Source of the DNA: Plasmodiophora brassicae
Lineage: Eukaryota
Direction of reading: 5' to 3'
Assembly (NCBI GenBank): GCA_036867785.1
Contig: CP145410.1
Location: 1,488,001-1,552,000, forward strand
Length of the DNA: 64,000 bases
The position numbers and the translations under genes are program-made. The notes under the pieces were generated by a model. The model did no database searches and was not told where the DNA came from. It worked only from the letters and a program-made list of their open reading frames with translations. Of this stretch, positions 22,496-62,375 are shown piece after piece (position 1 is the first letter of the stretch; the number at the start of each line of letters is the position of its first letter).

Positions 22496-22789
22496 CCGGA
22501 CGTCATTGGCCTACGGGAACGGCAACGTGCGTATCCGATCTTGGGACGCTTGATCGAGGAGAAGGAGCGGAACGAACCACTGAAGAGTCGATTGGCTGCG
22601 ACGACGATCTTGAACGAGGAAGGCGTCCTGATGAAAGTGCGGTCACCTCGTCGAGCTGCGGATGGCGAACGGCAAGTTCTGTCTGTGCCAGAGAGTGACC
22701 GTGGCAAGCAGCTGAAGAGAGCGCCTGACGATCCAGTCGCGGGGCACTGCGGCAAGGCAAGAACGATCCAGAACCTGCAGCAGGCGGCG

Positions 22790-23115
22790 TGTAGACAGGA
22801 CCGCCCCAACTAGGCCACGGGAGCAGCTGCTCTCGTGGCCTAGTTGGGCGGTCCGGTCTACAAAACATCTCACCGGGGAAGCTCAAGCCCCCCGACGATC
22901 GAGCGATGTCCGCCGCCTACCTGTGTAGACGACTCGCAGACCTGCTCTCGTGCCTGGCGCGTCCGTACTATCTACACATCCTCCCCAAAACTCTTCGTCT
23001 CTGCGGACTGCGAGGAGGCTCGAACTCCCGTCGGTGAGATGTTTTGTAGACCGGACCGCCCAACTAGGCCCGAGAGCAGCTGCTCCCGTGGCCTAGTTGA
23101 GCGGTCCGGTCTACA
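22790..23115. mobile_element. Miniature element with palindromic terminal repeats (family E), monomer
   Basis: Near-perfect palindromes 22790-22862 and 23045-23115 around a 182-bp core; 4-bp TSD GGCG; interrupts the integrase of relic I. Confidence 0.9.
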
Positions 23116-23279
23116 GGCGTTCTGGCCGGGCATGATCCGGGACGCGCGTCGATGCGTCAAACGTTGCCGAACATGCCAGCAGGCCAAATCTCGGGTAGGT
23201 GGTACCGTCGGAGCAAGGGCTGCGACAGGAGTTCGCCGACGACAACGTCCAGTTCCTGCCCTGGCATTCAGAGCACGTT

Positions 23280-38030: not shown

Positions 38031-38226
38031 TGATGAAGACGATAACGAAGTGATTTATTCCGACCGACATCGGCGCGAGACGGTGGCGATGTAACGCTGT
38101 GTAACAGGGGCTTGCCAAGCCGTTACCGACAACGGCGTCAGTGGCGGAGCTTCTGCCGTGGACGTTACGCAGTCGCGCGCAGTCACGGCGTCACCGTGTG
38201 CCGGTGGTACGACATGGTCCTTGACA
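38031..38226 (-). repeat. Solo LTR of family D
   Basis: 196 bp, TSD GTGTG, homologous to the LTRs of 45171-46119. Confidence 0.92.
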
Positions 38227-38546
38227 GTGTGCCGTACCGGTTGTCGCATTCGGGGAGCCATCTTCGTTGATCCCGATGACGTCCGCGTACCCACGATTGC
38301 GAAACCAGAGTGCAGCTGTCTGAACCCAGGACGTGAACGAGTCGGGAGTACCGTCGAACTTGGGCATGGGCAGTCGGCCTGCGTCGCTTCGGCTGTGCGC
38401 CTCGGCGGTGATCGGCATGGCCGGCGTCGATGGACAGCTGGTCGGACGCGCCAGCTGCTGCTGCAGGACGCGGAGGCGGTCGATCTTCTCCTGCCTGGCG
38501 ATCGTTGCCTCCGCTTCGGCAATTCGGGTGTCGATCTCCTCGAGCG

Positions 38547-38741
38547 TAAGGAAGACAATAGCGAAGTGATTTATTCCACCGACATCGGAGCGCGACGATG
38601 GCGACGTAACGCAGTGTAACAGGGCTTGCCAAAGCCGTTACCGGCAACGGCGACGGTGGCGGAGCCTCTGTTGTGGACGTGACACAGTCGCGCACCCACA
38701 CAATGTCATCGTGTGCCGGTGGTAGGACATGGTCCTCGACA
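38547..38741 (-). repeat. Solo LTR of family D (TG..TA ends)
   Basis: 195 bp, TSD GAGCG. Confidence 0.92.
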
Positions 38742-39028
38742 GAGCGACAGCTGACGCAGCGGGTCGTCATCCGTGTTAGGCGTCGCCTGGCGCTCGGCCA
38801 TGGCGAGTAGAGGCTCAGCGCCTGCGCCTATACGACTGTTAATCTGAGAAAGACAATAATGGAGTGGATATATTACGTACGGCGTGTGCGGCGGACGTTA
38901 CAGTGGCGACGTAGTCGCCGACGGTGTAACGGTTGCCAACGCCGGCGGGCACGGAGTCGCGGAGTGCGTGACGGCGTTCACGTGCTTCAGGCATGTGCTG
39001 CTGGTCGTAGTGGATACGTTGTTCGACA

Positions 39029-41781
39029 CAATCTTCACGAAAATCGACCTCCGCAGCGCCTATAACCAAGTTCGGATCCGAGAAGGCGATGAGTGGAAGA
39101 CGGCCTTCCGCACGCCGTACGGCTTGTTCGAGTACTTAGTCATGCCGTTTGGCTTAGCCAACGCGCCGGCCTCCTTCCAGTACTTCATGAACGAGACGTT
39201 CAAGGATTTCCTTGATGTATTTGTGGTAATCTACTTGGACGACATCCTGATCTACTCATCGACTCCCGAGGACCATGAACGCCATGTCCGTCTCGTCCTA
39301 GAGCGACTCCGCACTGCTCAACTCCACGCTAAACTGGAGAAGTGCGTCTTCAATACGGTCGAAGTGGAATTCTTAGGTTTCTTGGTGTCCTCCTCCGGGT
39401 TACGGTTTGACCCCTCCAGGATCGATTGCATTCTCTCGTGGCAACAGCCGACCGACGTCCACGGAGTGCAGGTATTTCTCGGGTTCGCTAACTTCTATCG
39501 CAAGTTCGTTCCCCACTTCGCAGAACTGGCCTTACCGCTGACAAATCTCACGCGTGATAACGTGCCGTTTCGTTGGGACCAATCGGCAGAAGCCGCATTC
39601 ACGGCGCTCAAGGTTGCTTTCACGTCAGCCCCTGTCCTTGCTCATTTCGACCCAGATCGCCCGTGCGAAGTGGAAACGGATGCTTCCGATTTCGCGGTGG
39701 CAATGGTATTGTCGCAGCGGGGGCCCGATGATGAACTTCACCCGTTGGCATTCTTCTCGCGCAAGCTCGCGCCTGCTGAGATCAATTTTCCTATCTACGA
39801 CAAGGAACTTCTCGCGGTCGTCCAGACCTTCGAGAACGGGCGTCAGTTCCTGGACTCATCGCGGCACCAGACCGTCATCCACAGCGATCATCGGAATCTG
39901 GAGTACTTCACCAGCACTCACAAACTGAATCGTCGTCAAGTCCGATGGTCCCAACTGCTTAACGAATTTGATTTCGTTATCCAACACCGACCAGGCCGTC
40001 TTCATGGCAAGGCGGACGCCCTGACTCGTCGCCCCGAATACGCGCCTTCTGATCAGGATGAGGTTGTGCTCCAGCAGTCACTCCTGCTCCTTCCACCGTC
40101 GCGGCTCGGGCCAGGACCTCTACAGGAGGTCCAGATCCACGTGACCGATACTCCAACCGACGCACTCCTCGATCGTATCCGCCGCAACCAAGCTTCCGAC
40201 CCGTTTGTGTGCCGCACCCGTCAGCGACTTCATCGTCCGAGCGGCCGCCACTTTAGCGTCCGCGACGACGTTCTATACCGTGGACATTCTGTGGTTGTCT
40301 CTGGCGATGACTGCAAACTGGACATTCTTCGCTATTTCCACGATAATGTCACGGCGGGCCACCTCGGTATTCGAAAAACCGTGCAGTTAATTCGCCGCGA
40401 ATTTTGGTGGCCGGGTTTAACCCCTTTCGTAACCCGTTACGTGCTCTCCTGCGATACGTGTCGTCGGACTAAGACGGCTCGGCACAAGCCCTTCGGATTA
40501 CTCATGCCACTCCCTCTGCCGACGACTCTTTGGCGGTCCATTTCCATGGACTTCGTGGTTAAGCTTCCCTGCTCGAACGGGTATGACTCCATCCTCGTCG
40601 TCGTTGACCGCCTCTCCAAGATGGCGCATTTTATTCCTTGCAACGAAACAATATCATCTGTCGACCTTGCCGCCTTGTTTCTAGCAAATGTCTTCCGCTT
40701 GCATGGCCTCCCTGACGATATCGTGTCGGACCGAGGGCGTCAGTTCATCGTTAAATTCTGGAAGCAACTTCTCATACGTCTCGGCGTGCAACGCAACCTG
40801 TCTTCTTCGCGGCACCCAGAATCCGATGGCCAAACCGAGCGGGTGAACCAAGTCATGGAAAAGTATCTCCGTGCGTACGTCAACTACTTACAAGACGACT
40901 GGCATCCGCTCCTTGCCGTAGCCGAATTTTCGTACAACAATGCAGACCATACCGCGACAGGTATGTCACCGTTTTTCGCGAATTATGGCTACCATCCACG
41001 TGTGATGGACGTGCAACCTCGACCGTCTACCAGCGCCAATCCGACTGCCGACGAGCGAGCTGAGTCCTTGCAGAGGATTCGCAACTTCTTGACCTGCCAA
41101 TTGACTAGCGCTTCTGCCGATTCCAAACGATTCGCCGACGCGAAGCGGCAAACGTCTCCGAAGTTTCAGGTGGGCGACTTAGTGATGTTACGTCGCGGCT
41201 CCCTGAAAACTCTGCGACCCTGCGCGAAGCTCGACTACCAATTTTTAGGGCCATTCCCTATCAGCCAACTCGTCAATCCGGTTGCCTTTCAACTCGACCT
41301 TCCTGCCGATTTCCGTATCCACAATGTATTTTATGTATCTCAACTCGAGCCTTACGTCGCCAACCTTATCCCTGGTCGCACTCAACCTCCTCCTCCACCG
41401 ATTCTTCTCGCGGATGACGATGCTCCCCTCTTCATCGTTCACGATGTTCTCGATTCTCGATATCGCCGTTCCCGACTGGAATATTTGATCGACTGGGAGG
41501 GGTACCCGCCTTCTGAACGCACGTGGGAACACGGTACAGGTGGGCTCAACGAATTGTTGGCTAACTTCCACGCTCGGTACCCAACCAAGCCGGGGCCGAA
41601 GTGGCGAAAGCCACCCCGCAGGCCGGCCCGATGACAGGGGACTATACTGTTATGGCACGGCCGCGACGGGGGTCGCGCAGCCGCGCAGTTTGAATAAACG
41701 TCCACGGCAACCGACGGCTTCGGCAGTCGGTTAATTCCGTGTTGTGGAGACAATAGTCGTCCGTCGTGTCGTCTCCTGACA
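39029..41781 (+). mobile_element. 5'-truncated second copy of Gypsy A (RT to 3' LTR 41648-41781)
   Basis: Nearly identical to 17108-19875; 15-bp deletion in the chromodomain; begins abruptly at the Copia LTR. Confidence 0.93.
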
Positions 41782-44092: not shown

Positions 44093-44288
44093 TAAGGAAG
44101 ACAATAACGAAGTGATTTATTCCGACCGACACCGGCGCGAGACGGCGGCGACGTAACGCTGCGTAACAGGGGCTTGCCAAGCCGTTACCGACAACTGCGT
44201 CAGTGGCGGGGCCTCTGCCGTGGACGTTACGCAGTCGCGCACAGTCACGGCGTCACCGTGTGCCGGTGGTACGACATGGTCCTTGACA
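44093..44288 (-). repeat. Solo LTR of family D (TG..TA ends)
   Basis: 196 bp, TSD TCAAC. Confidence 0.92.
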
Positions 44289-45170: not shown

Positions 45171-46119
45171 TGATGAAGACGATAACGAAGTGATTTACTC
45201 CACTGACATCGGCGCGAGACGATGGCGACGTAACGCAGTGTAACAGGGCTTGCCAAAGCCGTTACCGGCAACGGCGACGGTGGCGGAGCCTCTGTTGTGG
45301 ACGTGACACAGACGCGCACAGTCACAGCATCATCGTGTACCGGTGGTAGGACATGGTCCTCGACACGCCCCCTCCAACGGCACGCGGTTGCATGCGGAAG
45401 GCGGTCGAACTGACGTGTCCCGGCTGGACCTTCGACTCTGGATCATGTACAACACGACCTTGCTCGTGCTCGTATGTCTTGGCTTGTTGACGCGACACGA
45501 GACGGATCGTGGCGTAGCTAGAGCTGACAGGTATGGCGCGATATGCTGGGGCGGAGTCGTCAATGACGACACAGAGAGGAGGACCTGGCGCGGGACGACA
45601 CCGACGCCGAAGGCGCCGGCGGACAACGTTATATCGAGAAGAGGTTGAGGCAAGCGATTGAGGCCCGTACGACCGGCGTACGCCTGGCGCTTACGTTCCG
45701 GTACTGGTTCTGGATTCCCGTAATGACGGCCTGCCTTGCTTGCGCGATCTGCCTCGGCTCTCTGGCGCGTGGCGCGACTGGAGTGGGCGTTCGTGGCGCG
45801 TTGTGCAGAAGCAGGGTCAGGGCAGAGACACAGTGACGCGGGACTGGCACTGGATGGCACCGGCGCGCGGGGCGCCGGCGGGCTCGCCGCCTCGAAGCGC
45901 GTAGAACGCGTACGACTGTTAATCTGATGAAGACGATAACGAAGTGATTTATTCCACTGACATCGGCGCGAGACGATGGCGACGTAACGCAGTGTAACAG
46001 GGCTTGCCAAAGCCGTTACCGGCAACGGCGACGGTGGCGGAGCCTCTGTTGTGGACGTGACACAGACGCGCACAGTCACAGCGTCATCGTGTACCGGTGG
46101 TAGGACATGGTCCTCGACA
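45171..46119 (-). mobile_element. TRIM-like non-autonomous LTR element (family D)
   Basis: 195-bp LTRs 45925-46119 and 45171-45365; TSD GTCCA; 559-bp interior with no recognisable domain; same PBS core and PPT as Copia C. Confidence 0.92.
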
Positions 46120-46287
46120 GTCCATACCTTCCCGTTGGCACCTTGCGGCGTTCCTTCAGCAAGTCGGCCACCTGCTTTTTCATAGGCTTCTTAGGGCAAC
46201 GAAACGCTGGATGCCCAACCTCCTCACAGTTGAAGCATCTCAGGTCCTTCCGGTGTCGTTTCGTGTCCCGGCCTCCATCGCTTCCGT

Positions 46288-47276: not shown

Positions 47277-50200
47277 TGTAGATCGTGTATAGAGAACCTC
47301 AGCGTCATCGTTCCCAGATCTCCTGATCCTTCTCCCTCATGCCGTCCGGCCTTCTCGCATGCCGTACGGACTCTCCTGGTCTTAGGGCTGCCTCTCCTAG
47401 ATGCTGTTCTTGGTATCTCTGGCTGCGACAGGGCATGCTGCACTGCTCCACCGTCTACACTGCCCTTTTCCGAACATGACCTGGATGCAGACGTAGAGAT
47501 ACGTAGGCTCGTTGCTGCATTCGTGCGACACGTAGGCGTTACTTGGTTCGTGTGCGCGTTCAGATTGGTCACGCCCGTTTCTTGAGATTAGACTCATCGC
47601 AATAAGGATAGTTAAGTGAATCAGATTCGCCGGACCATGTCAGCATAGTGCTAACAGTTCTCAGCCATACTGACGACATCCACCCCCACGTGGGAGGTGG
47701 TCACCTCGTTACAGGCACCCATCCATTCCAAATCACTCCAGCGAGTCACCAAACGTTCCATATTTCCCAGTGATCCAGCCAACCGTCCCCATGTGGTGTA
47801 CGACAAGTCATACGCTGACATTAAGGCAGCATTTCCAATTCCCACAGTTCCCAATTCGCACCCGGTTCCATCCAATTCCAGTTCCAATTCCCCATGCACT
47901 GATCTGTGAGTTGCGTCCAACACACTACATCAGCGCCGGCTGTGAGCTCACTACTGCGTCCAGTAAGTTCCGCTCGCAACCACCACGAATACCCACACTG
48001 CGTCCAGCCATGTGCATCCGTAGTTAGTTCCGTTCCCATCCGATATCGGTTCACCGAAGCCCAATCTTTAGGAATCCGATGACTGGCGTCCGTTCGACTA
48101 CCAGGGTTAGCCGAAGTCCAATCTTTAGGATCCGACTGTGGTGGAGTGTTTCCCCATGCATATGCGAGTTCCGTACCGTTGGTTTCCATTTGGTACATGA
48201 TCCCATTCAGTGGCCAATTTGCTGAATGTTCCCAGACTGAGTCCCATGCCCAGTGGTTCGGGCCCCGTGCCCACGCAGGTGCTCCGCGCACCGTGCGTCC
48301 GATCGACGTCCTTTCCGTTTTCGCGTCGTTGTTCCTCGTTGCCTATGTACAGTTAGCAACCTTCGACCAGCTATTTTACCATGTTCCAGCCGGCCGGTCA
48401 TCATATCGTCAATTCCGTGGTCGTTTAGTCCTCTGACGTCGCGCTCCTTTTGCTTGACGTCGTTTCGAGGCAGGCTGGCGATTCCCGTTCGTCGCCGCCG
48501 AGTTCAACAATGTTCGCAACTCCTCCGCCTGAGGGTGGTCATCTCCCAGTCGGTCATACAGATCACGAGCCATCGTCGGCACGTCCTCGATTATGATGTC
48601 CGCCGGTTCCCATGTGGCGTCCGATTCCTCGAATCCTTCCCAGAGCACTTTGATTTCGACTCGCTTCTCGCTCGCATTGTATCGGCAGTCAGCTAGATTC
48701 TCCACCAAGAGCTTATGATTCGAGTGCTGAAGATGCTTCTTCATCGTCGCCGTCATGTTCAACTTCCCATCAGCGTATCGTCTGATCCGTTGGATGTGCG
48801 CCCGAAACTCCTTCTCGTGAAGAGGATCGTACAGCAGGTACACCTGATCGTTCAGTCGCTGCAGCACACGGAATGGGCCATTCCACTTGGCGATCAGTTT
48901 GTTCCCCGGGCCCATGTTCGGTCGTGCGCACAAGACGTAGTCACCTGGAATGAACGCTTCATCGTCTCCAGGACGCAGCTGCCTGTTGCGCTGCTGGACA
49001 TTGGCTCGATGCCGCTTCTCTTTGCCCATCTCGACATCCTTGTGTATGTTGTCGAAATCGTCCTTCATCTTCTCGATGTGCTGAGTAATAGTCGCAGGAT
49101 TCACAGGTCGCCAATCGCTAGCTTTCAAATCCCAGATCAGGTCTAGAGGATTCTCCGGTTGGATGCCAAACGCCGCCGTCACCGGTGCATGACCTCCACG
49201 ACGCTTTGAAGGCGTATGGTTCATGGCATGTTGCACCAGCTGACATGCGTACGGCCAGTTGTGGGTGTCGATCTGGTTCTCATTCAGTAGGCTCCTCAGC
49301 ATCTCCACGACCGTTCCATTCGCCCGTTCGACCGTTCCATTCGACCATGGACAGTACGCCAGCGTGATGTGATGCGCAACGTGACGTAGCCGACTCAAAT
49401 CCTCCATCACCTCAGCGGTGAAATGTGAACCACCATCGGTAACCAGGATCTCTGGCGTCCCGAAGTCAGCGATCCACGCCATCAGGGAATCAGCTGCAGT
49501 CCGGGCCGTCGCGTTCGTGCAAGGAATCAGGCGGACAAGTCCCGAGAAGTCGTCCTTGAGCAGCAATATGTACTTGTAGTCGTGGTCCGCTCCGCGAACC
49601 GGCTCGACGTACATGTAGTCCATATGCAGCACCTGAAACCTTTCGTGACCGTGAACAGCCTGACCCAGCGGCCGCGGAATCCGTTCTCCTCCTCGAGTGG
49701 TGACGCAGTGCAGGCACTGATCGCACATTTGTTGCACGTGCTCCTCCACTCCAGCCCAGCGGAATCGTCTCATAACCGCTTCTCTGGTGGTTGTCCCGCC
49801 ACGATGCATAGCACTGCCGCAGTGCGCCACGACCAGGATCCGTAGTCGTAACGTCTCTGCGTCGTCATGGCTTGGAATTAACACCTGTCCAGAGTCAGAT
49901 TTCCACAGTTTGTCGCGATCATCCCATTGCGCCTTGAATGCTGCCTTCTCGTCGTCGGTCAGCAGCTTCTGGGATTGTCGTATGTCGGCTTCACGAGGCC
50001 ATTCGAATCCGTCGTGCGCCATGGGGGTTACTCGCAGGTCTTCCATGGACATGACTCGAGCTGCCCGACACGTAAGCGCGATTCGACCCGCGCCCCATCG
50101 CGTCAGTAGATCTGCCCACGCATTGTCCTCCCCGCTGATGTCCACCATCTTGTATCGGAATCCTTGCAGATGAACGGACCACCGCTCCAGCTTTGCGGCT

Positions 50201-53200
50201 GTGTGCTTCTTCATCTCCATGTCGTTGTTGAAGATGTATCGTAGATTCCGATGATCGCAGTAGAGCAGGAACTCACGTCCGGTTTGCAGCAAGAAATCGC
50301 CTCGCGTAGTCGCCTGGACGATCGCCGCTGCCTCTTTCTCGATGATAGGCCATCGTAGCTGCGTGTTGTCGAAGCGTTTCCCGTAGAACGCCAGCGGTTC
50401 ATGTCGTTGCTCACTGATCGGCAATTCGATGTCCTCCATTGGAATCTGAGTCACGACCGCCGACCATGCGAATTCGCTTGCGTCCGTGAAGAGGCAGGTC
50501 TGGAAATCCTTCTTGGGGTAGGCCAGTTGCACGTGTTCGACCAGCACCGCCCGCAGCCTCTCGAATGCTTCTCGTTGTCGTTCAGACCAGCCCATCGCGT
50601 CCACCGTCAATGAGGCATAAGAACTGGACTTCGTTCGTTTCAGCTCCTCATTCGCCCGGTCAACGACCTCCTGTAGTGGCTCGATGATGTACGGGTAGTC
50701 CGGGATGCTCGTGCGCATCCATCCCACCGCCCACATCAGTTGCTGCAGGTCTTTAACCGTCTTCGGCTCCGGCATGCTTGTCAGAGCTGCTATCCGTTCC
50801 GGGTCATGTCGAATGCCGTTGCCAGAGTAGATCTTCCCGCACCAGACCAGCTCCCTGGCGAAGATCGTGCATTTCGTAGGGTTGAACTTCAGTCCGACTT
50901 CGCGTGCCCGTTCGAATACGTTGGCCAGCAGTTCCAGAAGCTCGGCCTCCGTCTTCGCGAATCCCAGCAGATCATCAATCCAGACCATCATTCGATCCAT
51001 CAGGTCGTCGAAGATGTTCACCATCCTTGCTTGGAATTGCGGGGCCGTGTTCAGTCCGCCCTGGATGCTTCGTGTAGGTGTCCAAACCGAATCGTCTGTC
51101 ATGAATGAAAACATCTCTTGACAAGATTTGTCCAGAGGCATCAACCAGAAGCCCTTGAAGGCATCCAAGCTGAAGAAGCACGACATACCTTCGAGCTTGC
51201 GGGCTCCCGCCTCGATGTTCGGCATGGGCCAGACAGTTGGCTCAGATCGCAGGTTCACCTGTCGAAGGTCGACGCATAGTCGGTAGCCGTCTCCGTGTGG
51301 CTTCTTGACGATCAGGACAGGACTAGCCCACTTCGAGTTCATGTTCGCAAAGATTAGGCCGTTGTCCTTCAGCATCCGTATCATGTCCGTCAAGAACTCC
51401 TTCTGCTTCGGGTTGTACATGCGTGGCTTGCACCGATATGGTGTGGCACCGTCCTTCAGGTCCGTCCTCAATGGTTCCACGTCCACAGGTGGGTCAGACC
51501 CCAGCGTCGTACGGAATTCGTTCATGTGCGTGTTCAATATCTTCCGTAGTCGCCTCAAGCCTTGCCTCGAAATGCCATTCTTCTTAGCCTGCTTGATCAT
51601 ATCGTTGACAGCCTTGCTGATTCCAGACGGATCAACCTTTCCGAGATCGATCTCACTGCGCGTCGGCTCGCCTTCGCTGTTCGCGTAGGGGTTGCATCCG
51701 CGGTTGGCGCTCAGTTCGATCATCTTGGCCGTCACCCTCTCCACCGTCTCGAGCGAGTCAGCATCGAACTGCATTACCCCATCGTTCGTTGACATCAGCG
51801 ACTCCAACTGCTGTTTGGGATCAATTCCCATAGCCGTGAGAATCGGGTTTCCGAGCAGCGTCTTCGCAATCATCGTCGAGATGTAGAATCGCATGTTGTA
51901 CAGCGTCAATGTCCCGTGTTCGCCGTGCAGTTTCATGATCGGAACGGCAAGGACCTTCGAGCAGACCTCAGTGGTCTTGTCATCACCCAGGACAATCTCG
52001 ATCGGATCAATCTCCTGTATCGCAGCTGCATCGTCAAGCCGTTCTGCAATGTTCGCCGGTATGACGTTGCCTCCACGGCATTCGGAATCCAGAGCGCACT
52101 CGAATGTGGTCTCCCCGATGGTTGCCCTCAGAGTGTCATCGCTTGCATCACCATCGTACGTTCGAACACGTGCCGCGTTTATTCCGCGGTTGCCACGACC
52201 ACGGCGCTCCTCCTCCGTCGGCGGTTGCGGGCAGTCGCTCACGTAGTGATCGCCCTTGCATCGGAAACAACCACCTTTGGGGGATTTCTTCGTGTCACGG
52301 TTGCCGTCGTGCTCATCTTCTCGATTACGTCCTCCGTTTCGCTGGCTTCCGCCTCCCGCAGGTACGACTTCCTGTTGTCCTCCCGGCGTGTCCCGACCGT
52401 GTCCTTCAGTCTTGTGTCGACCATGACCTTCTCCGCGTCGTCCGTTCGGGCCTTCGCGCTCATGACCGCGTCCGTTGCGCTGGAATCCGCCACCGAATCG
52501 TTGACGCTTGGGAGTGGGTTCCGGGGACCGTCGACCGCCTCGCTTGTTGACCTTTACACCGCGAGGGTAGTTGCCGCCATTGTCCTTCGCGATTGCCCTC
52601 AGTTGGGCGACCGTCTCCTTGTCAGATGTGCTCGGGTTGCCCAGCACGTCGACGACCGAATTCGCGTATCGGATGGCTTCCTGGAACAGACCCTCGATGT
52701 CGCCAGTGCGCGCTTCTGGATCCCGTTCTACCCAGTCGACCATGTGTTTCTGCAGCGGAATCGGCTTGATGGCATCCACCACTAGCTTGCCGAAGACGCG
52801 CCTCCCCGCCTGGTCGTCGTTCATCCACTCCAGGCCGTTTTGGGACACCAGACGCCGCAACTCGAATCGTATCGACTTGATCCTGTCGATCAGGAATGGC
52901 AGTTTCGTGTTCATGGCCAGTTCGTTCGCCAGCAACTTCTCCGCCGCCTTCAGATTGTGCGCCATTCGGCTCCCCAGCTGTGCAATCTCCTCGGCCATCC
53001 ACGCCTCGAGGTGAGCGTCCGTCATCTCCTGCTCATCCTGGAGTCCCAGCTCGTCCATCGCAATTGCCTGTCGTTCATGAAACTTGAAGCAGTTCCGGAT
53101 TGAGACTGGGCCGCGTCGTTCTCGCTCCGGCAGGTACGCCTCCGCCTCCGACGTGATGCGACAGTAGTCCGTGTACTGCTCCTCCAACTTCTTCAGTGAG

Positions 53201-53476
53201 CTCGGGTCCAGCCCCTCCGTCATTGGCTGCTGCCCGGGCTTCAATCGTCGTGCCATAGTGCTTTGGATCTCGTCGATCGGCTAAAACCGGTTTTGTAGAT
53301 CGTGTATAGAGAACCTCAGCGTCATCGTTCCCAGATCTCCTGATCCTTCTCCCTCATGCCGTCCGGCCTTCTCGCATGCCGTACGGACTCTCCTGGTCTT
53401 AGGGCTGCCTCTCCTAGATGCTGTTCTTGGTATCTCTGGCTGCGACAGGGCATGCTGCACTGCTCCACCGTCTACA
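47277..53476 (-). mobile_element. Intact chromodomain Ty3/Gypsy (family F), single ORF, long 3' UTR
   Basis: Identical 183-bp LTRs 47277-47459 and 53294-53476 (TGTAGA..TCTACA); 4-bp TSD TCGC; PPT GGAAAAGGGCAG. Confidence 0.96.
48409..53256 (-). CDS. Gag-Pol polyprotein, 1615 aa (family F)
   Basis: CFRCKGDHYVSDC, ALDSEC, LDAFKGFW, WIDD, FTDAS, LHMDY/VTDGG/NGTVER, chromodomain VLWEGFEESDATWEP. Confidence 0.95.
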   Translation of the reverse strand: MARRLKPGQQPMTEGLDPSSLKKLEEQYTDYCRITSEAEAYLPERERRGPVSIRNCFKFHERQAIAMDELGLQDEQEMTDAHLEAWMAEEIAQLGSRMAHNLKAAEKLLANELAMNTKLPFLIDRIKSIRFELRRLVSQNGLEWMNDDQAGRRVFGKLVVDAIKPIPLQKHMVDWVERDPEARTGDIEGLFQEAIRYANSVVDVLGNPSTSDKETVAQLRAIAKDNGGNYPRGVKVNKRGGRRSPEPTPKRQRFGGGFQRNGRGHEREGPNGRRGEGHGRHKTEGHGRDTPGGQQEVVPAGGGSQRNGGRNREDEHDGNRDTKKSPKGGCFRCKGDHYVSDCPQPPTEEERRGRGNRGINAARVRTYDGDASDDTLRATIGETTFECALDSECRGGNVIPANIAERLDDAAAIQEIDPIEIVLGDDKTTEVCSKVLAVPIMKLHGEHGTLTLYNMRFYISTMIAKTLLGNPILTAMGIDPKQQLESLMSTNDGVMQFDADSLETVERVTAKMIELSANRGCNPYANSEGEPTRSEIDLGKVDPSGISKAVNDMIKQAKKNGISRQGLRRLRKILNTHMNEFRTTLGSDPPVDVEPLRTDLKDGATPYRCKPRMYNPKQKEFLTDMIRMLKDNGLIFANMNSKWASPVLIVKKPHGDGYRLCVDLRQVNLRSEPTVWPMPNIEAGARKLEGMSCFFSLDAFKGFWLMPLDKSCQEMFSFMTDDSVWTPTRSIQGGLNTAPQFQARMVNIFDDLMDRMMVWIDDLLGFAKTEAELLELLANVFERAREVGLKFNPTKCTIFARELVWCGKIYSGNGIRHDPERIAALTSMPEPKTVKDLQQLMWAVGWMRTSIPDYPYIIEPLQEVVDRANEELKRTKSSSYASLTVDAMGWSERQREAFERLRAVLVEHVQLAYPKKDFQTCLFTDASEFAWSAVVTQIPMEDIELPISEQRHEPLAFYGKRFDNTQLRWPIIEKEAAAIVQATTRGDFLLQTGREFLLYCDHRNLRYIFNNDMEMKKHTAAKLERWSVHLQGFRYKMVDISGEDNAWADLLTRWGAGRIALTCRAARVMSMEDLRVTPMAHDGFEWPREADIRQSQKLLTDDEKAAFKAQWDDRDKLWKSDSGQVLIPSHDDAETLRLRILVVAHCGSAMHRGGTTTREAVMRRFRWAGVEEHVQQMCDQCLHCVTTRGGERIPRPLGQAVHGHERFQVLHMDYMYVEPVRGADHDYKYILLLKDDFSGLVRLIPCTNATARTAADSLMAWIADFGTPEILVTDGGSHFTAEVMEDLSRLRHVAHHITLAYCPWSNGTVERANGTVVEMLRSLLNENQIDTHNWPYACQLVQHAMNHTPSKRRGGHAPVTAAFGIQPENPLDLIWDLKASDWRPVNPATITQHIEKMKDDFDNIHKDVEMGKEKRHRANVQQRNRQLRPGDDEAFIPGDYVLCARPNMGPGNKLIAKWNGPFRVLQRLNDQVYLLYDPLHEKEFRAHIQRIRRYADGKLNMTATMKKHLQHSNHKLLVENLADCRYNASEKRVEIKVLWEGFEESDATWEPADIIIEDVPTMARDLYDRLGDDHPQAEELRTLLNSAATNGNRQPASKRRQAKGARRQRTKRPRN

Positions 53477-54207
53477 TCGCCCTGAGCAGACCGGGGTCGA
53501 TCATACTCTTCACTGATCGCGTGATCTGGCCCTTGGCGTTCGGATCGTCCCGGAAGTGATTCCGCTACTTCTTCAGCGCGGCCATGAACGTCGTGACGGC
53601 CTTGCGGTCCATGCTCTTCAAGGTCGCCGCCTTGTTCATCTGCAGGACGATCGTTGAGCCTTGCACGCTCCGTCCTTGTTGTCGATCGTCGACGTCATCT
53701 TCCAGCAGCACCTCCTGCGCGGCGGCCACCATCGCGTCCTTCTTTGAAACCTTCCCCGAAATGATGTTCAAGAGATCTCTGACGTCCTAACGGTGATGGT
53801 TTATCGAACCGGGTGCGTAGTCGTCTGTGTCCTCGACCTGCAGCTCCTACGGACGCCGTGCGGACTCCGTGCGGACTCCGTGCATGTCCGTCATTCTTAG
53901 GGCGGCCAGCCGGATCACAGCTATTCTTGTCTTATAGTTTGGAGCCGGCACAGACGACATTGTCTCGGATCGTGGCCCTCAGTTCGTATCGTTGTTCTGG
54001 AAACATCTCCTATGCCGTCTCGGCGTCGAACGCCATCGGTATCATCATCCCGCCACCCCGAATCAGACATGTTCAGACCGAGCGCGTCAACCAGATATCA
54101 GAGCAATACCTTCGCTGTTACGTGAGCTACCTGCAAGACGACTGGGAGTCATTATTGGCACTGGCCGAATTCTCGTACAATAACGTCGACCAGTCGTCCA
54201 CTGGAAT

Positions 54208-54831
54208 TGTAGACCAGACCGCCAACTAGGCCACGAGAGCAGCTGCTCTCGTGGCCTAGTTGGCGGTCTGGTCTACAAAACATCTCACCGGGGAAGCTCG
54301 AGCCCCCCGACGATCGAGCGATGTCCGCCGCCTACCCGTGTAGACGACTCGCAGACCTGCTCTCGTGCCTGGCGCGTCCGTACTATCTACCATCCTCCCC
54401 AAAACTCTCCGTCCACGGCGGACTTCGAGGAGGCTCGAACTCCCGTCGGTGAGATGTTTTGTAGACCAGACCGCCAACTAGGCCACGAGAGCACGTCGGT
54501 GAGATGTTTTGTAGACCAGACCGCCAACTAGGCCACGAGAGCAGCTGCTCTCGTGGCCTAGTTGGCGGTCTGGTCTACAAAACATCTCACCGACGGGAGT
54601 TCGAGCCTCCTCGAAGTCCGCCGTGGACGGAGAGTTTTGGGGAGGATGGTAGATAGTACGGACGCGCCAGGCACGAGAGCAGGTCTGCGAGTCGTCTACA
54701 CGGGTAGGCGGCGGACATCGCTCGATCGTCGGGGGGCTCGAGCTTCCCCGGTGAGATGTTTTGTAGACCAGACCGCCAACTAGGCCACGAGAGCAGCTGC
54801 TCTCGTGGCCTAGTTGGCGGTCTGGTCTACA
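54208..54831. mobile_element. Family E inverted dimer
   Basis: Perfect 70-bp palindromes at 54208-54277, 54510-54579 and 54762-54831; core forward 54278-54459 and reversed 54580-54761; 50-bp local duplication; TSD GAAT. Confidence 0.92.
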
Positions 54832-55122
54832 GAATGTCTCCCTTCTTCGCGAACTACGGCTATCACCCTCAGCTACGCGACTTCCGTCCTTGCAAACACG
54901 GCAGCTCCAATCCCTCTGCTGATGAGCGCGTGGCGCACTTGACCGCCATTCGCCGTTCCTAAACGGCCAACTGCGTCGTGCTGTCAGCGCCATGAAACGA
55001 GCTGCGGATCGAAAACGCCGACCACATCCCGACTTCAAGGTCGGGGAGATGGTCATGCTCCGTCGAGGGGCAATTGCGACTGGCCGCCCATGCGGTAAGC
55101 TGGATGTCCACTTTCGAAGTTA

Positions 55123-55317
55123 CCGTAAAATACACTGCGCTGTTCCCCCCAATGTACAGTAAAAGTGCGTGACCTGTCCATCGTTCCGAAAAGTTTTATG
55201 TGGGCCTGACGTGAGCGTCAGACAGGTTCTCGCAGTCGCTGCTCGCAAAAATTTGATGGCCAATTTTTGGGAGGGGGGTACAGGTCCCCAGGGGGTACAG
55301 CGCAGTGTATTTTACGG
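55123..55317. mobile_element. Tc1/mariner-type MITE (195 bp)
   Basis: 27-bp TIR CCGTAAAATACACTGCGCTGT(T/A)CCCCC; TA TSD; removal restores GAAGTTAGTCGC as in family B. Confidence 0.9.
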
Positions 55318-55840
55318 TAGTCGCATCGTCAATCCGGTCGCCTACGAACCCCTGCTTCCGGCATCCTTCCGCATTCACAACGTCTTCCACGCATCCCAAC
55401 TGGAACCGTACGTCCCGAACGTGATACCCAATCGGGTGCAGCCATCGCCACCTCCGATTTGGCTTGACGACGACGACCAACCGCTGTTCATCGTGAAGGA
55501 AGTCCTTGATTCTCGATACCGTGCAGTATTATATCGACTGGGACGGCTACCCTCCGTCCGAGCGCACCTGGGAACCCGCCTCCAACTTGAAAGGCACAGG
55601 CGGCTTCGATCGCCTGCTCGCGGACTTCCACGCTCGGAACCCAGACAAGCCCGGACCGCGTCTCCGGTGCCGGTAAAAGGGGACTACACGGTCGAGTCGC
55701 TATCTTGGCGACTCAACCGGCACCTAATCGGGCTCCTCCGCCGCGCAATACCTACAATAGACGTCCACGGCGCGGACCGACCGACCTCAGTCGGTCAATC
55801 CGTGTGGTTGACACATCTTGCTCTGTCGTCAGTCGTCACA

Positions 55841-57045: not shown

Positions 57046-58143
57046 ATGGCGGGAGGTGATGGGTTGATTCCGGCGTTGTCGGACCCGCCATCGTCCGCGA
57101 ATCCGGATGTTGCAGCTGCGGCGGATGTTGCTGGCGCTATCGAGCTGCGCGACCTGAAGGCGGAGATCCTCGACCTCTTAGCCCAGTTGAAATTCGCGCA
57201 TGGCTCGCTGCCTAGGGCCAGCCCTCCCGCAGCGCCAGCTGTCTCGTCTCCCGAAGTGCGCAACGACTCGTCGGATCCCCCGGTCATCAGCGCTGTGCCT
57301 TCCCTATTGCCTCTCCACGCTTCTGTGGCTTCGTCTCTGCCGAATTCTGTCGCCCCGTCGACGCAGCATCCCGTGTCCCCGCCGCCGCCGCCGCCTATTG
57401 TTGTCCAGTCCCACGATATCCCGCGATTTTCGGGGGCGGACGGTCTGTCGACGATGCGTTGGTTGACCGCTTTCGCGCGGACCACCCAGACGCCATTAAC
57501 GTCTACCAGTCCGCTTTCCGACGCTGTGCAATGCATCTTGACGACGGCCTTGAAAGGATACGCCTTGGAGACTTATCTTGACCTTTCCGAGGACGCGTCA
57601 ATGGCGGACGTGGCATCCGCCCTGCTTCATGATTTTCCGGAGCCGTCGTTAAAGCGGGTCGAAGCTGATTTTGACAATTTGAAGCAGACTTCCAGTGTGG
57701 TTCACCATGCGCGGGAGTTCCAGCGCTTGTACAAGAAGGTTCAACAACTCGACCCCTTGTATAGGCTGAGTCCGTCCCGTTTGGCGGAAAAGTTCCGCAT
57801 GTCCTTGCACCCTGCACTTTCTGATGCCCTCTTCATTTACAACTACACCGAGTACGACAAGATGTTCGAGATGGCGATCCATCTCGAACCGAAGTATCCG
57901 ATCGCCGCTGTCAACGCTATCGAGGTCGGAGGGGCGCAACCTTTGGTCTGCCACTATTGTCGCGAGGCTGGACATTTCATTGCGTCCTGCCCCAAGCGAC
58001 CTCCGTGCCAGCACTGTCACAAGGTTGGTCACCGCTCCGCGCTGTGCCCCGAGCGGCCTGCCGCTGCTGGTCCTCCGTCGCCCCCACCCAGCGCCAGCGT
58101 CCCGCAGGCTGGTCCCCCGGGAAATGTGCCCGGGCGTCTGTGA
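57046..58143 (+). CDS. gag: Gag (family B), two CCHC knuckles
   Basis: CHYCREAGHFIASC and CQHCHKVGHRSALC. Confidence 0.92.
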   Translation: MAGGDGLIPALSDPPSSANPDVAAAADVAGAIELRDLKAEILDLLAQLKFAHGSLPRASPPAAPAVSSPEVRNDSSDPPVISAVPSLLPLHASVASSLPNSVAPSTQHPVSPPPPPPIVVQSHDIPRFSGADGLSTMRWLTAFARTTQTPLTSTSPLSDAVQCILTTALKGYALETYLDLSEDASMADVASALLHDFPEPSLKRVEADFDNLKQTSSVVHHAREFQRLYKKVQQLDPLYRLSPSRLAEKFRMSLHPALSDALFIYNYTEYDKMFEMAIHLEPKYPIAAVNAIEVGGAQPLVCHYCREAGHFIASCPKRPPCQHCHKVGHRSALCPERPAAAGPPSPPPSASVPQAGPPGNVPGRL

Positions 58144-61100
58144 ACGGGTTCCCCAGTCGCCCAGTAAACATTTCTTTTGGTTCCGAACCCGACTTTCTTC
58201 ATGTTACGGATTTATTCTTTACGTCGGCTACATCTATACCACATCTATTGGTACCGGTCTGTCTCGTTATCGGCTCACGTCGCGTCAGTACGCTCGCCTT
58301 GTTAGACTGTGGCGCGACGTCCAATTTTATCGACTGGTCGTTCTGTCGTCATCACGAAGTGCCTGTTCGCGCCAAATCGCGTGCTATTCCGGTTCGCGTC
58401 ATTGACGGCCGTCATCTGGCCCCAATTACTCAGGAAACCGCCCCGCTACGAATCACCGTCGACGAATGTTTCGACAGTGACGTCGTCCTGAACATGATCC
58501 ATTCGCCGCAGCATCCTGTCATCCTCGGCCTGCCGTGGTTGGCGGATACAAACCCTGACATCGATTGGCGGAGCCACCGTCTCCAGCATCGCGGCCCTCG
58601 CATCGCGGGGATCTCAATCCCGGCAGGAGACCTCCCTGCGTCTACGCATGCAGTTGATTCGGCGGCATCAGTCGAAACATTGCCGACTGCCTCAGCATCT
58701 GAGGTAGCCGAGGTGGAGGTAATTGCCCTCCCTGAGTTGGCTTCTGACGACGAGGACGACGACGATTACTCCGAGTTCGGGACCGTCCCGGCTGCGGGCG
58801 TCGATAGCTCTAGCGCTTCCGTCATCGCTCCCGATTGCCTCTCGGAGGTCGCTGTCACTGATACGGTGGCCGCCGGTCACAGTGAACCGCCTGCTGCTGT
58901 TGTCGACAGCTCTAGCTCTCCCGCCCTCGCGCATGCCTGCCTCTCCGAGGTCGCTGCCGCTGCTAATGTGGCAGCGTGCCACAACGATCCGTTATCATCG
59001 TTCCCCTCGGGCCCCGAGCCGTCGTGCGTCCGGCACCGTGGACCCGTCCGTCGAGGGGCGGGACAACGCCTCTCGCCGCCTCGCCCCTCTGGCGGGCTTC
59101 GTGGTCGCCACATTATTAATCTTTTGATGACTGCATCCTTGGTCGCCCTGGCCTGGGTCCTTGGGTGGACTTATCTTCCATTCACGCGGCTCCCTTCCGG
59201 CGCCTCTGCGGAGCCCCTGATCTCGAACGCCGCCGACGAGTCCTTCTTTACGCCCCTGGTCTCACCAGACGGTGACCCGGGGTCATCAACCTCGATTGCG
59301 TTCATCAGCGCTGAGCCGTTTCTGGATGCTATCGTTGACGACGCAGCTTGTTACCTTCTGCATTATACTTGGACCGAACTCGACTCGGACTCAGTCTCCG
59401 GGCCTGCGCTTCCTGACGCCTATCGCGAGTTCTCGGACGTGTTCGCCACTGACAGCCCGGCGTGCCTGCCTCCTCACCGCGCTTCCGATTGCCCCATCGA
59501 TCTTAAGCCCGGCAAGGAGCCACCATTTTGTCGGTTATATGGTCTCTCCCAACGAGAGCAGGTGGCCCTCAAGCAGTATCTGGAAGCCAATTTAAAGTCG
59601 AATTTCATTCGTCCTTCCCGTTCTTCGGCCGGTGCGCCAATTCTGTTTGTACGCAAGAAAGACGGCTCGCTGCGACTTTGTGTCGATTATCGCGGCCTAA
59701 ATTCTGCCACGATCAAGAACCGGTATCCACTGCCTCTTATTGACCAACTTCTTGCCAACCTTAGTCGGGCCACGATCTTCACGAAAATCGACCTGCGCAG
59801 CGCGTATAATCAAATTCGTATCCGCGAAGGGGACGAGTGGAAGACGGCGTTTCGCACCCCGTATGGACTCTTCGAATATTTGGTTATGCCGTTTGGCCTC
59901 GCAAACGCACCGGCTTCGTTCCAGTCGTTCATGAATGATATGTTCAAGGATTACCTCGACCAGTTCGTTGTCGTATATCTGGACGACATCCTTATTTTTT
60001 CTGCGAACGTCGCCGACCATGAACACCATGTGCGCCTCGTCCTGGAACGACTTCGGGCTAGCAGTCTTACCGCTAATATGGAGAAGTGTGTTTTCGGCGC
60101 CAAGGAGGTCGAGTTTCTCGGCTACCTCGTTTCTCGAGACGGACTGCGCCTCGACCCTGCCCGTATCGACACTATCCTGTCTTGGCAACCGCCACGAGAT
60201 ATCCATGGTCTCCAAGTATTCTTGGGATTCGCCAATTTTTATCGCAAATTTATTCCTCACTTCGCGGAAATTGCTCTACCACTCACAAACCTGACGCGTG
60301 ACGGTGTCGCCTTTATCTGGGATGCTGACGCTCACGCTGCATTCGGCTCTCTGAAGGTTGCGTTCACATCGGCACCTGTCTTGGGCCATTTCGATCCTCA
60401 TCAACCGTGTGATGTCGAGACCGACGCCTCAGACTTTGCCATCGCTATGGTCCTTTCGCAAAAGGGCGGCGCAGATGGGGAGTTGCACCCGATCGCCTAC
60501 TTCTCGCGGAAGCTGATTGCTGCCGAGATTAGCTATCCCATTTACGACAAGGAACTCCTGGCGGTTGTGGAAGCGTTCACTAAGTGGCGGCAGTTCCTCG
60601 ACTCAGATCAGCACCAAACTGTCGTGCATAGCGACCATCGTAACCTCGTCCACTTCATGTCTACCCACAAGTTAAACAGACGTCAGGTTCGCTGGTCTCA
60701 ACTGCTTAGCGAATTCGATTTCGTGATTCATCATCGTCCGGGGCGACTTCATGGGAAGCCGGACGCCCTCACTCGTCGTCCGGAATACCAACCTTCGCCT
60801 GGCGACGAAGAAATTCTAGCAATGTCTCAACAGCTGCTTCCACCGCATCGCTTCTTCCGCCCGGACCCAGCTATTCTCTTTCTCCAGACCGGTACATCAG
60901 GCATCTCCCTTGTCGAACGTATTCGTCGCGAACAAGCCGATGACCCCTTCGTCCAGAAGACGTTATTATCGCTGGACGGGCCTCGTGGACGACGTTTCCG
61001 CGTTGCCGATGGTCTCTTATACAACGGAACCGCTCTCGTCGTCGCTGGTGAGGCCTGCAAGCTGGAAGTTCTGCACAGCCTTCACGACAACGTTACCGCC

Positions 61101-62375
61101 GGTCATTTTGGGGTTCGCAAGACATTGCAGCTCGTCAAGCGCGAGTTCTGGTGGCCCAAGATGTCCTCGTTCATCAAGGGTTACGTGGCGACCTGTGACA
61201 CGTGTCGCCGCGTCAAACCTCCTCGCCATCGACCATCCGGCCTGCTACTTCCGCTACCAATTCCAACCGCTCTCTGGTCCTCCATCTCAATGGACTTTAT
61301 CGTCAAGCTCCCCTCCTCCCGTGGCTATGACTCTGTACTGGTCGTGGTCGACCGTTATTCGAAGATGGCCCACTTTGTGGCGTGTCGAGAATCCATTTCC
61401 GCGGATCAGCTGGCCGATCTGTTTCTTCAGAACGTGTTCCGTCTGCATGGCCTGCCCGACGACATTGTTTCGGATCGCGGACCCCAGTTCGTATCGTTGT
61501 TCTGGAAGCACCTCCTATGCCGTCTCGGCGTTGAACGCCATCTGTCATCATCCCGCCATCCCGAATCTGATGGCCAGACCGAGCGCGTCAACCAGATATT
61601 AGAGCAATACCTTCGCTGTTATGTGTGCTACCTGCAAGACGACTGGGAGCCATTATTGCCGCTGGCCGAATTCTCTTACAATAACGTCGACCATTCGTCC
61701 ACTGGAATGTCTCCCTTCTTCGCGAACTACGGCTACCACCCTCAGCTACGCGACCCTCGTCCTTGCAAACACGGTAGCTCCAATCCCTCTGCCGATGAAC
61801 GCGTGGAGAACTTGACGGCCATTCGCCGTTACCTACACCGCCAACTGCATCGTGCTGTCAGCACCATGAAACGAGCTGCGGATCGGAAACGCCGACCTCA
61901 TCCCGACTTCAAGATCGGGGAGTTGGTCATGCTCCGTCGAGGGGCAATTGCGACTGGCCGGCCATGCGGTAAGCTGGATGTCCAAATGCTCGGGCCTTTC
62001 GAAGTTAGTCGCATCGTTAATCCGGTCGCCTACGAACTCCTGCTCCCGGCATCCTTCCGCATCCACAACGTCTTCCACGCATCCCAACTGGAACCGTACG
62101 TCCCGAACGTGATACCCCATCGTGTGCAGCCTCCGCCACCCCCGATTCTGCTCGACGACGACGACCAACCGCTGTTCATCGTGAAGGAGGTCCTGGACTC
62201 TCGATATCGTGCTGGTAAGCTGCAGTATTATATCGACTGGGAAGGCTACCCTGCATCCGAGCGCACCTGGGAACCCGCCTCCAACTTGCAGGGCACCGGC
62301 GGATTCGATCGCCTGCTCGCGGCATTCCACGCTCGGTACCCAGACAAGCCCGGACCCCGTCTTCGACGCCCGTAA
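58119..62375 (+). CDS. pol: Pol PR-RT-RH-IN-chromodomain (family B), -1 frameshift
   Basis: LLDCGAT, YLDD, TDASD, SMDF/VSDRG/GQTER, YYIDWEGY..TWEP; GGGAAAT at 58119-58125. Confidence 0.95.
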   Translation, partial: GKCARASVNGFPSRPVNISFGSEPDFLHVTDLFFTSATSIPHLLVPVCLVIGSRRVSTLALLDCGATSNFIDWSFCRHHEVPVRAKSRAIPVRVIDGRHLAPITQETAPLRITVDECFDSDVVLNMIHSPQHPVILGLPWLADTNPDIDWRSHRLQHRGPRIAGISIPAGDLPASTHAVDSAASVETLPTASASEVAEVEVIALPELASDDEDDDDYSEFGTVPAAGVDSSSASVIAPDCLSEVAVTDTVAAGHSEPPAAVVDSSSSPALAHACLSEVAAAANVAACHNDPLSSFPSGPEPSCVRHRGPVRRGAGQRLSPPRPSGGLRGRHIINLLMTASLVALAWVLGWTYLPFTRLPSGASAEPLISNAADESFFTPLVSPDGDPGSSTSIAFISAEPFLDAIVDDAACYLLHYTWTELDSDSVSGPALPDAYREFSDVFATDSPACLPPHRASDCPIDLKPGKEPPFCRLYGLSQREQVALKQYLEANLKSNFIRPSRSSAGAPILFVRKKDGSLRLCVDYRGLNSATIKNRYPLPLIDQLLANLSRATIFTKIDLRSAYNQIRIREGDEWKTAFRTPYGLFEYLVMPFGLANAPASFQSFMNDMFKDYLDQFVVVYLDDILIFSANVADHEHHVRLVLERLRASSLTANMEKCVFGAKEVEFLGYLVSRDGLRLDPARIDTILSWQPPRDIHGLQVFLGFANFYRKFIPHFAEIALPLTNLTRDGVAFIWDADAHAAFGSLKVAFTSAPVLGHFDPHQPCDVETDASDFAIAMVLSQKGGADGELHPIAYFSRKLIAAEISYPIYDKELLAVVEAFTKWRQFLDSDQHQTVVHSDHRNLVHFMSTHKLNRRQVRWSQLLSEFDFVIHHRPGRLHGKPDALTRRPEYQPSPGDEEILAMSQQLLPPHRFFRPDPAILFLQTGTSGISLVERIRREQADDPFVQKTLLSLDGPRGRRFRVADGLLYNGTALVVAGEACKLEVLHSLHDNVTAGHFGVRKTLQLVKREFWWPKMSSFIKGYVATCDTCRRVKPPRHRPSGLLLPLPIPTALWSSISMDFIVKLPSSRGYDSVLVVVDRYSKMAHFVACRESISADQLADLFLQNVFRLHGLPDDIVSDRGPQFVSLFWKHLLCRLGVERHLSSSRHPESDGQTERVNQILEQYLRCYVCYLQDDWEPLLPLAEFSYNNVDHSSTGMSPFFANYGYHPQLRDPRPCKHGSSNPSADERVENLTAIRRYLHRQLHRAVSTMKRAADRKRRPHPDFKIGELVMLRRGAIATGRPCGKLDVQMLGPFEVSRIVNPVAYELLLPASFRIHNVFHASQLEPYVPNVIPHRVQPPPPPILLDDDDQPLFIVKEVLDSRYRAGKLQYYIDWEGYPASERTWEPASNLQGTGGFDRLLAAFHARYPDKPGPRLRRP

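Follow-up and report, generated by a model that had tools for sequence, protein, structure and literature searches.

Several kinds of inverted or repeated DNA can be set beside the locus treated here, a 624-bp insertion of a short transposon that we call family E. It lies at positions 54208-54831 of a 64,000-nucleotide stretch of the Plasmodiophora brassicae genome (contig CP145410.1, positions 1,488,001 to 1,552,000 of the forward strand; hereafter the window, in whose coordinates all positions are given). The insertion is an inverted dimer of the element, enclosed as a whole by a single 4-bp target site duplication, and it is best explained by a strand switch, that is, a turn-around of DNA synthesis, within the palindrome that forms each end of the element.

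That eukaryotic chromosomes undergo foldback inversions through hairpins, and template switching where palindromes occur, is established (PMC7467729; PMC7999016). As in the dimer, the chromosomal foldback inversions and template-switch duplications of yeast and human cells have their junction in the middle of an inverted repeat that was already there, they place the duplicated segment in inverted orientation, and secondary changes stabilise the product (PMC7467729; PMC3907307; PMC7999016). They usually extend over kilobases to megabases, however, and either end in dicentrics or need secondary rearrangements. The event behind the dimer would have covered 250 bp, with the same 70-bp palindrome at both bounds, an in-register return and untouched flanks.

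Complex or tandem long terminal repeat (LTR) retrotransposons resemble the dimer in another respect, since repeat, internal part, repeat, internal part and repeat follow one another within a single target duplication (PMC1950507; 10.1101/452573; PMC11899658). Their proposed cause is a switch of template while the element replicates (PMC1950507; 10.1101/452573). These tandem elements are arranged head-to-tail, whereas the internal parts of the family E dimer are inverted, an arrangement open only to an element whose terminal repeat is a palindrome.

In the rolling-hairpin replication of parvoviruses, a dimer replicative form arises with one palindrome at its junction; these viruses and family E have in common hairpins at their ends and an inverted dimer joined through one palindrome. 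Unlike a parvovirus, family E has no linked Rep/NS1 nickase in the window and no coding capacity, and its integrated copies show TG...CA ends and a 4-bp duplication, as would the substrate of an integrase. Family E, known here from its sequence alone, gives no evidence of a free replicon. In a literature search covering titles, abstracts and passages, we found neither a transposon dimer in inverted arrangement enclosed by one target duplication nor a eukaryotic rolling-hairpin transposon described.

Anatomy of the dimer and of its target site

The unit of family E is 326 bp long and consists of a core between two copies of a 70-bp perfect palindrome, P, each made of two 35-nt arms. Positions 54208-54831 are an inverted (tail-to-tail) dimer of this unit, with one palindrome common to both copies. 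The parts are as follows.

54204-54207: left copy of the target site duplication, GAAT
54208-54277: P1, 70-bp perfect terminal palindrome, TGTAGACC...GGTCTACA, with centre CAG/CTG
54278-54459, plus strand: core(+), 182 bp, non-coding
54460-54493: truncated arm, 34 of the 35 nt of an arm, directly after core(+)
54444-54543, plus strand: 50-bp exact tandem duplication (the stutter), 54444-54493 being equal to 54494-54543
54510-54579: P2, the shared central palindrome, with the symmetry centre of the whole dimer between 54544 and 54545
54580-54761, minus strand: core(-), the exact reverse complement of core(+)
54762-54831: P3, the right terminal palindrome
54832-54835: right copy of the target site duplication, GAAT

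An earlier note on this DNA had described this layout (P, core(+), the 50-bp tandem duplication, P, core(-) and P inside one GAAT duplication), and repeat and alignment analysis upheld every one of its structural statements. Core(+) equals the reverse complement of core(-) at 182/182 positions. The first 13 nt and the last 13 nt of the core are inverted repeats of each other, which extends the terminal inverted repeat to 83 bp (P plus 13 nt).

The unit of the tandem duplication comprises 16 nt of the core end and 34 nt of the arm start, and Tandem Repeats Finder reported it with a period of 50, 2.0 copies and 100% matches. It stops 1 nt short of the P2 centre, next to which the earlier note had indeed placed its end, and no microhomology was found at its borders. 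P2 together with 16 nt on either side forms a 102-bp perfect palindrome (54494-54595). The arms of the dimer as a whole, 54208-54493 and 54546-54831, are 286 nt each and 100% complementary across a spacer of 52 nt; once the 50-bp duplication is subtracted, the 624 bp become a single palindrome of 574 bp.

Folding the 624 nt as single-stranded DNA gave -430.9 kcal/mol, whereas 20 shuffled versions averaged -116.7 (z -63), and a single P folded as a DNA hairpin gave -44.8 kcal/mol (z -16). The 35-nt arm occurs 7 times in the window (0.00 expected from 100 shuffles). All nine inverted repeats of at least 30 nt found within 1.5 kb across the window come from family E. Rfam, searched with an E-value limit of 1, returned 20 matches, 0/20 at the gathering score; nearly all were to generic miRNA-precursor hairpin models, and we rejected them as meaningless.

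The dimer lies in an older retrotransposon.

53953-55831, plus strand: host element, an old degenerate copy of a Ty3/gypsy chromovirus, integrase C-terminal part, with a 3' LTR remnant (55687-55831) at its end

The integrase frame of this host is split between ...STG and MSPFF..., and it resumes after the dimer. An intact paralogue in the same window (57825-62375) is uninterrupted at the corresponding site and represents the empty site, with a single GAAT at 61705-61708. The left flank of the dimer (53953-54207) aligns with 61458-61708 at 90.6% identity and the right flank (54832-55110) with 61705-61984 at 92.9%, and the overlap of the two alignments on the paralogue is exactly GAAT. Because they overlap by these 4 bases only, the 4-bp target duplication is real and the bases of the host are all present.

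Four public sequencing runs were compared with the window, X1 and X20 as contigs, X21 and X22 as raw 151-nt reads from two other isolates. X1 was the best match, with 0.52 of the sampled words; as it may be the source sample, it is not independent. A 329-nt X1 contig over 53908-54236 crosses the left junction with 0 differences and carries the arm variant of the dimer, and X1 contigs over the right flank (54841-55069 and 55057-55150) also show 0 differences. A joint corresponding to the empty form, from 54203 to 54832 (4 letters fit on either side), was present in 1 X20 contig and 6 X22 reads and in 0 records from X1 and X21. Given the high word depth in X20, these records most likely derive from paralogous gypsy copies.

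How the dimer may have formed

P is the same on both strands, so that a growing strand that has passed P could pair with the opposite strand or with itself. The switched strand would then run back through the core as far as the next P, where it would return to its first template in register, and the product would be P-core(+)-P-core(-)-P within the original target duplication. We lean, tentatively and with weak commitment, towards a chromosomal origin, in which the switch took place after a monomer had integrated, presumably as a template switch during replication-fork or repair synthesis. This timing is preferred because it needs no extra enzyme, the route before integration leaving a covalently closed end that would be unusable by an integrase. 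The feature expected of a foldback was found: the symmetry centre of the dimer is the P2 centre, a place where the monomer already has a P.

The 50-bp duplication would be a second, centre-associated event, due either to stalled and restarted synthesis at the hairpin tip or to a later change. It would interrupt a perfect 574-bp palindrome, leaving arms of 286 nt on either side of a 52-nt spacer, a structure that should be far stabler in eukaryotic cells. For inverted repeats in such cells, frequent fork stalling was seen with a 12-bp spacer and not with a 52-bp spacer (Voineagu et al. in PMC7999016). With its 52-nt spacer, the survival of the dimer is understandable.

The centre of P is also where other rearrangements of the family end. 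Three kinds of junction terminate at most 2 nt from it: the 50-bp duplication itself; a single-arm form, with joints from 54454/54459 to 54798 (21 reads in X21 and 22 in X22, with 20 and 28 for the opposite-strand equivalents); and a short derivative, with joints from 54316 to 54543 and from 54493 to 54720 (3+3 reads in X21, 0 in X22). The P centre is thus a recurrent break or switch point.

Several points weigh against a strand switch in the chromosome as we have described it. No second family E dimer was seen within the window. Nothing dates the event; had the dimer been formed beforehand and inserted whole, the sequence would be no different. An origin in situ requires a second switch inside P, while run-off synthesis on a free molecule yields the exact end anyway. 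Lacking microhomology, the 50-bp duplication is not explained by simple slippage. Finally, the central junction and the 50-bp duplication have no independent read or contig support. In the X1 and X20 contigs, built on 31-letter words that cannot span the 70-bp palindrome, depth is 0 at 54518 and at 54526, no contig crosses 54493/54494 and none spans P2 with core on both sides; such gaps in contig cover prove nothing by themselves. In X1, the bin 54488-54529 has a depth of 89.6, but this comes from the end of a contig with depth 1880.8, which extends into 2 of the 42 bin positions.

We consider it somewhat unlikely that the dimer is older than its insertion. In that case, a free linear E molecule (cDNA or excised DNA) would have primed its own copying at its 3' palindrome, or a dimer would have come from another locus, and the whole would have integrated at once. 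This would account for the single duplication around the whole, for the integrase-type ends that are intact on both sides, and for the inverted copy halting exactly at the element end, as in run-off synthesis. Parvoviral dimer forms likewise have a single palindrome at the junction, and family E looks young and multi-copy. The duplicated unit, which runs from 16 nt of core through 34 nt of arm to the hairpin tip, might be taken for an aborted strong-stop-like product.

A retroelement polymerase can indeed copy its own strand from a 3' DNA hairpin: reverse transcriptase does so in vitro at the cTAR hairpin of HIV-1 minus-strand strong-stop DNA (PMC6088434). The HIV-1 products are dead ends, however, suppressed by nucleocapsid and undetected in endogenous reactions of HIV particles, and the passages cited draw no link to integrated inverted dimers (PMC6088434). 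Furthermore, a self-primed product would be a monomer duplex with one covalently closed end and not an open-ended dimer, and either a nickase or annealing between molecules would be required before an integrase could act. No nickase is linked to family E, the sole HUH protein of the window being an unconnected Helitron Rep/helicase (28157-30706), and the absence of a second dimer in the window counts against this origin as well. The sharing of outer arms in an old monomer, described below, is unlike an LTR-like regeneration of both P from one P. The earlier note had proposed that the polymerase turned around at a terminal hairpin before integration. Copying round the palindrome remains the simplest origin; the timing is unsupported, as a monomer already in the chromosome would, if the template were switched twice within P, end up with an identical sequence and the same single duplication.

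An artefact of assembly, polishing or library preparation is unlikely. The true locus would then be a monomer, or a dimer devoid of the 50-bp duplication, and the remainder would stem from fold-back or amplification chimeras or from local re-assembly. Palindromes are known to cause trouble in sequencing and polishing, the holes in the X1 and X20 contigs fall in the centre of the dimer, and the sole locus-specific support is the 329-nt left-junction contig from X1, possibly the source sample. Fold-back chimeras, however, are palindromic through the flank, whereas the symmetry of this locus reaches precisely to the ends of the element and no further; on the right, the host gene resumes as it should, after a regular 4-bp duplication. 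Overlaps of 70-83 bp would probably be too short for joining by a long-read assembler; the contig resolves 100%-identical LTR pairs elsewhere, which argues for long, accurate reads, and the holes in contig cover carry no weight of their own.

It seems to us quite improbable that family E as such multiplies by hairpin-primed, rolling-hairpin-like synthesis. In that scheme, concatemers would be opened and inserted through the CA-specific cleavage of a gypsy-type integrase, in place of the viral nickase; the dimer would represent an intermediate caught on the way, and P would derive from an earlier fold-back on a 12-bp palindrome in the LTR start. The resemblance to a rolling-hairpin cycle, to which the earlier note had drawn attention, is one of anatomy alone, with no nickase linked to E and no second dimer in the window.

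Two ordinary events, be they an opposite-orientation insertion into or beside another copy or two inverted insertions recombined via P, can hardly be credited and are rejected on anatomy, even though family E does enter other transposons (the three small-element insertions seen, namely the dimer, the monomer and element Y introduced below, all lie in retrotransposon pol genes) and a palindromic P can recombine in either orientation: there are three P instead of four and no internal 4-bp duplication, internal core sequence and not an element end follows the truncated arm, and the host is complete with one exact GAAT duplication, which would require both insertions at the very same site. The inner borders of the 50-bp duplication, which are not element ends, likewise show that the inverted dimer is not one copy inserted in another.

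Family E, element Y and the inserting enzyme

Three further elements in the window bear on the history of family E.

22790-23115, plus strand: family E monomer (P-core-P), 326 bp, non-coding, with a GGCG duplication at 22786-22789 and 23116-23119
13980-14041 and 19881-19950, plus strand: element Y, 132 bp, with ends TGTAGACC...GCTCTACA and an ACGT duplication
47277-53476, minus strand: Ty3/gypsy retrotransposon X, with 183-bp LTRs (47277-47459 and 53294-53476) and a 4-bp duplication, TCGC

The monomer is ~93.6-93.8% identical to the halves of the dimer. It sits in an integrase zinc-finger region, and its excision in silico restores ...QQAAFWPGMI.... Its four arms show 3, 0, 1 and 2 differences from the consensus; they have decayed independently, implying that arms are not efficiently homogenised in place. 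At the single informative arm site, the two outer arms have G and the two inner ones A, a sharing that fits an inverted rather than a direct relation of the ends.

In the dimer, the six complete arms are identical and the truncated seventh is equal over its 34 nt; relative to the consensus of the 22790 copy, they have one G>A change and one missing C. The observation in the earlier note that the arms of the dimer carry one variant, distinct from the 22790 copy, therefore holds for the dimer, though the arms of the 22790 copy are not themselves uniform. What could not be maintained is the reading of this identity as a mark of copying from one template. The same variant is present as a minority in the two other isolates (174/537 reads in X21 and 290/911 in X22, summed over seven diagnostic positions) and is a subfamily marker older than the dimer, not the trace of one event. 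As the variant is not locus-specific, these counts are no proof of the dimer in those isolates.

Family E clearly exists in many copies, with P outnumbering the core. In X1, a 136-nt core contig (0 differences) has ~20x the word depth of the flank contigs (2394 vs 123), and the P arms have more than 200x, word depth not being a copy number. P, far commoner than the E core, belongs to at least one more repeat family. Collections of genome, metagenome and viral contigs, scanned for exact patterns of the P centre or the arm, contained 0 matches.

In the other isolates, the G variant of P is often the middle part of a longer palindrome, flanked left and right by ~15 nt of AT-rich sequence that are complementary to each other. 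Loose ends belonging to this context were counted at 54222 and 54263, in 102 and 140 reads of X21 and in 185 and 207 reads of X22.

Element Y was inserted in the YMDD motif of a reverse transcriptase, and its removal restores YMDDVPVFSQ. It has since been cut in two by a gypsy insertion at 14042-19875 (134-bp LTRs, 100% identical; AGCAG duplication). The first 36 nt of Y are the consensus arm of family E, and exactly at the place of the P centre Y has only a 12-bp palindrome, GAGCAG/CTGCTC. With one arm and this native palindrome in Y, P looks like a fold-back copy of a Y-like, LTR-like start.

The E core was also compared with Y. The score was 24 in one orientation, shuffled sequences having a 95th percentile of 20 and a maximum of 29, and the similarity was set aside as not significant. 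Within the E core, positions 54338-54375 repeat, in degenerate form, the end of the element together with the centre of its palindrome (TGTAGACG...CTGCTCTCGTGCC). There are hints that the core may itself have been assembled from older arm sequences.

Retrotransposon X, 800 bp from the dimer, agrees with family E in its terminal hexamer, extended to a heptamer at one end, and in the length of its target duplication. On the sense strand, its LTR ends are TGTAGACG...GATCTACA and its polypurine tract is GGAAAAGGGCAG; its polyprotein has the domains RVT_1, RNase H, integrase zinc finger and rve core. A Protein Atlas look-up of this polyprotein pointed to Eukaryota of mixed phyla and to no single clade. 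Ends of the form TGTAGA...TCTACA together with 4-bp duplications were found in 4/4 elements (dimer GAAT, monomer GGCG, Y ACGT, X TCGC). Two other gypsy families with readable ends have 5-bp duplications (AGCAG, TAAAC) and ends TGTTAT.../TGTCAC.... Chance agreement of both ends and duplication length would be roughly one in a hundred, a rough estimate and not a computed value. Because family E shares its ends and its duplication length with X and Y, a retroviral-type integrase is its probable inserter. We infer that this is probably a DDE integrase of the X kind, and X would be a candidate source for E and Y. Two points tell against this link: it is founded on 6-7 terminal bases and the duplication length, and comparison of the E core with X (5' leader, 3' end, LTR) revealed no similarity, with scores of 14-19 against shuffled 95th percentiles of 19-21.

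X itself has an uninterrupted 1623-codon gag-pol frame, and its LTRs differ at 2 of ~190 aligned positions. Just 43 nt separate the 5' LTR from the ATG, and the sequence past the LTR (AAACCGGTTT...) is a 10-bp palindrome without a TGG-type primer site.

As to its class, family E may be mobile via RNA, like a TRIM element, or as DNA, like a Ginger-type miniature element; either would be possible. In the manner of TRIM/SMART elements or solo LTRs, the dimer and the monomer have TG...CA termini and a target duplication within the 4-6 bp range, and each removal (dimer, monomer, Y) restores the host frame. P stands at both ends and, being palindromic, is a direct and an inverted repeat alike. No primer binding site is recognisable after the P of family E (the sequence is AAACATCTCACCG, without a TGG start), there is no polypurine tract before its 3' P (the sequence is CGGTGAGATGTTT), and the 64-kb window has 0 tRNA genes.

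Ginger elements, which are DNA transposons related to Gypsy integrases, are characterised by TGTNR termini, by duplications of 4 bp and by terminal inverted repeats that measure 40-270 bp (PMC2836005), and family E resembles them in its TGTAG start, its 4-bp duplications and its 83-bp inverted ends. Their target preferences are CCGG/CCGT for Ginger1 and RTATAY for Ginger2 (PMC2836005), whereas the family E and Y sites are GAAT, GGCG and ACGT, 0/3 of which fit. The ends of family E are palindromic, a feature not mentioned in the passages of that report cited here. A Pfam scan of the 19 large open frames of the window found no gypsy-like integrase devoid of a reverse transcriptase.

Surroundings and significance

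The same scan of large open frames depicts the window as a nest of eukaryotic transposons, with gypsy and copia elements, a Helitron Rep/helicase and a DUF659 protein. Two copia-type elements in opposite orientation (23280-28159 and 33392-39029) share 3144 bp at 99.97% and 1140 bp at 98.7% identity; they flank the Helitron Rep/helicase frame (28157-30706, minus strand) as an inverted repeat with arms of ~5 kb, ~5 kb apart. A repeat of ~190-200 bp occurs in six copies, 84-99% identical, near retrotransposon fragments (38024-38742, 44093-44288, 45171-45365 and 45925-46121).

If the dimer is real, a transposon with perfect-palindrome ends can double into a long perfect hairpin and still keep its insertion ends. 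The dimer thereby connects two fields, palindrome-driven template switching and integrase-type transposition. It also suggests that inverted-repeat elements may be built stepwise, from a 12-bp palindrome in an LTR-like end to a 70-bp palindrome and on to one of 574 bp.

Lying inside a possibly transcribed retrotransposon, the dimer could yield a 286-bp perfect double-stranded RNA and so act as a silencing trigger for its own family. A parallel is Mu killer of maize, an inverted transposon duplication that yields hairpin RNA (PMC3440606); read-through transcription of the dimer could likewise make a long perfect hairpin RNA. This likeness concerns a possible consequence of the dimer, which we know here as DNA, and not its origin. 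Should the dimer instead predate its integration, a cellular element that depends on an integrase would for the first time have given a sign of forming concatemers by hairpin priming.

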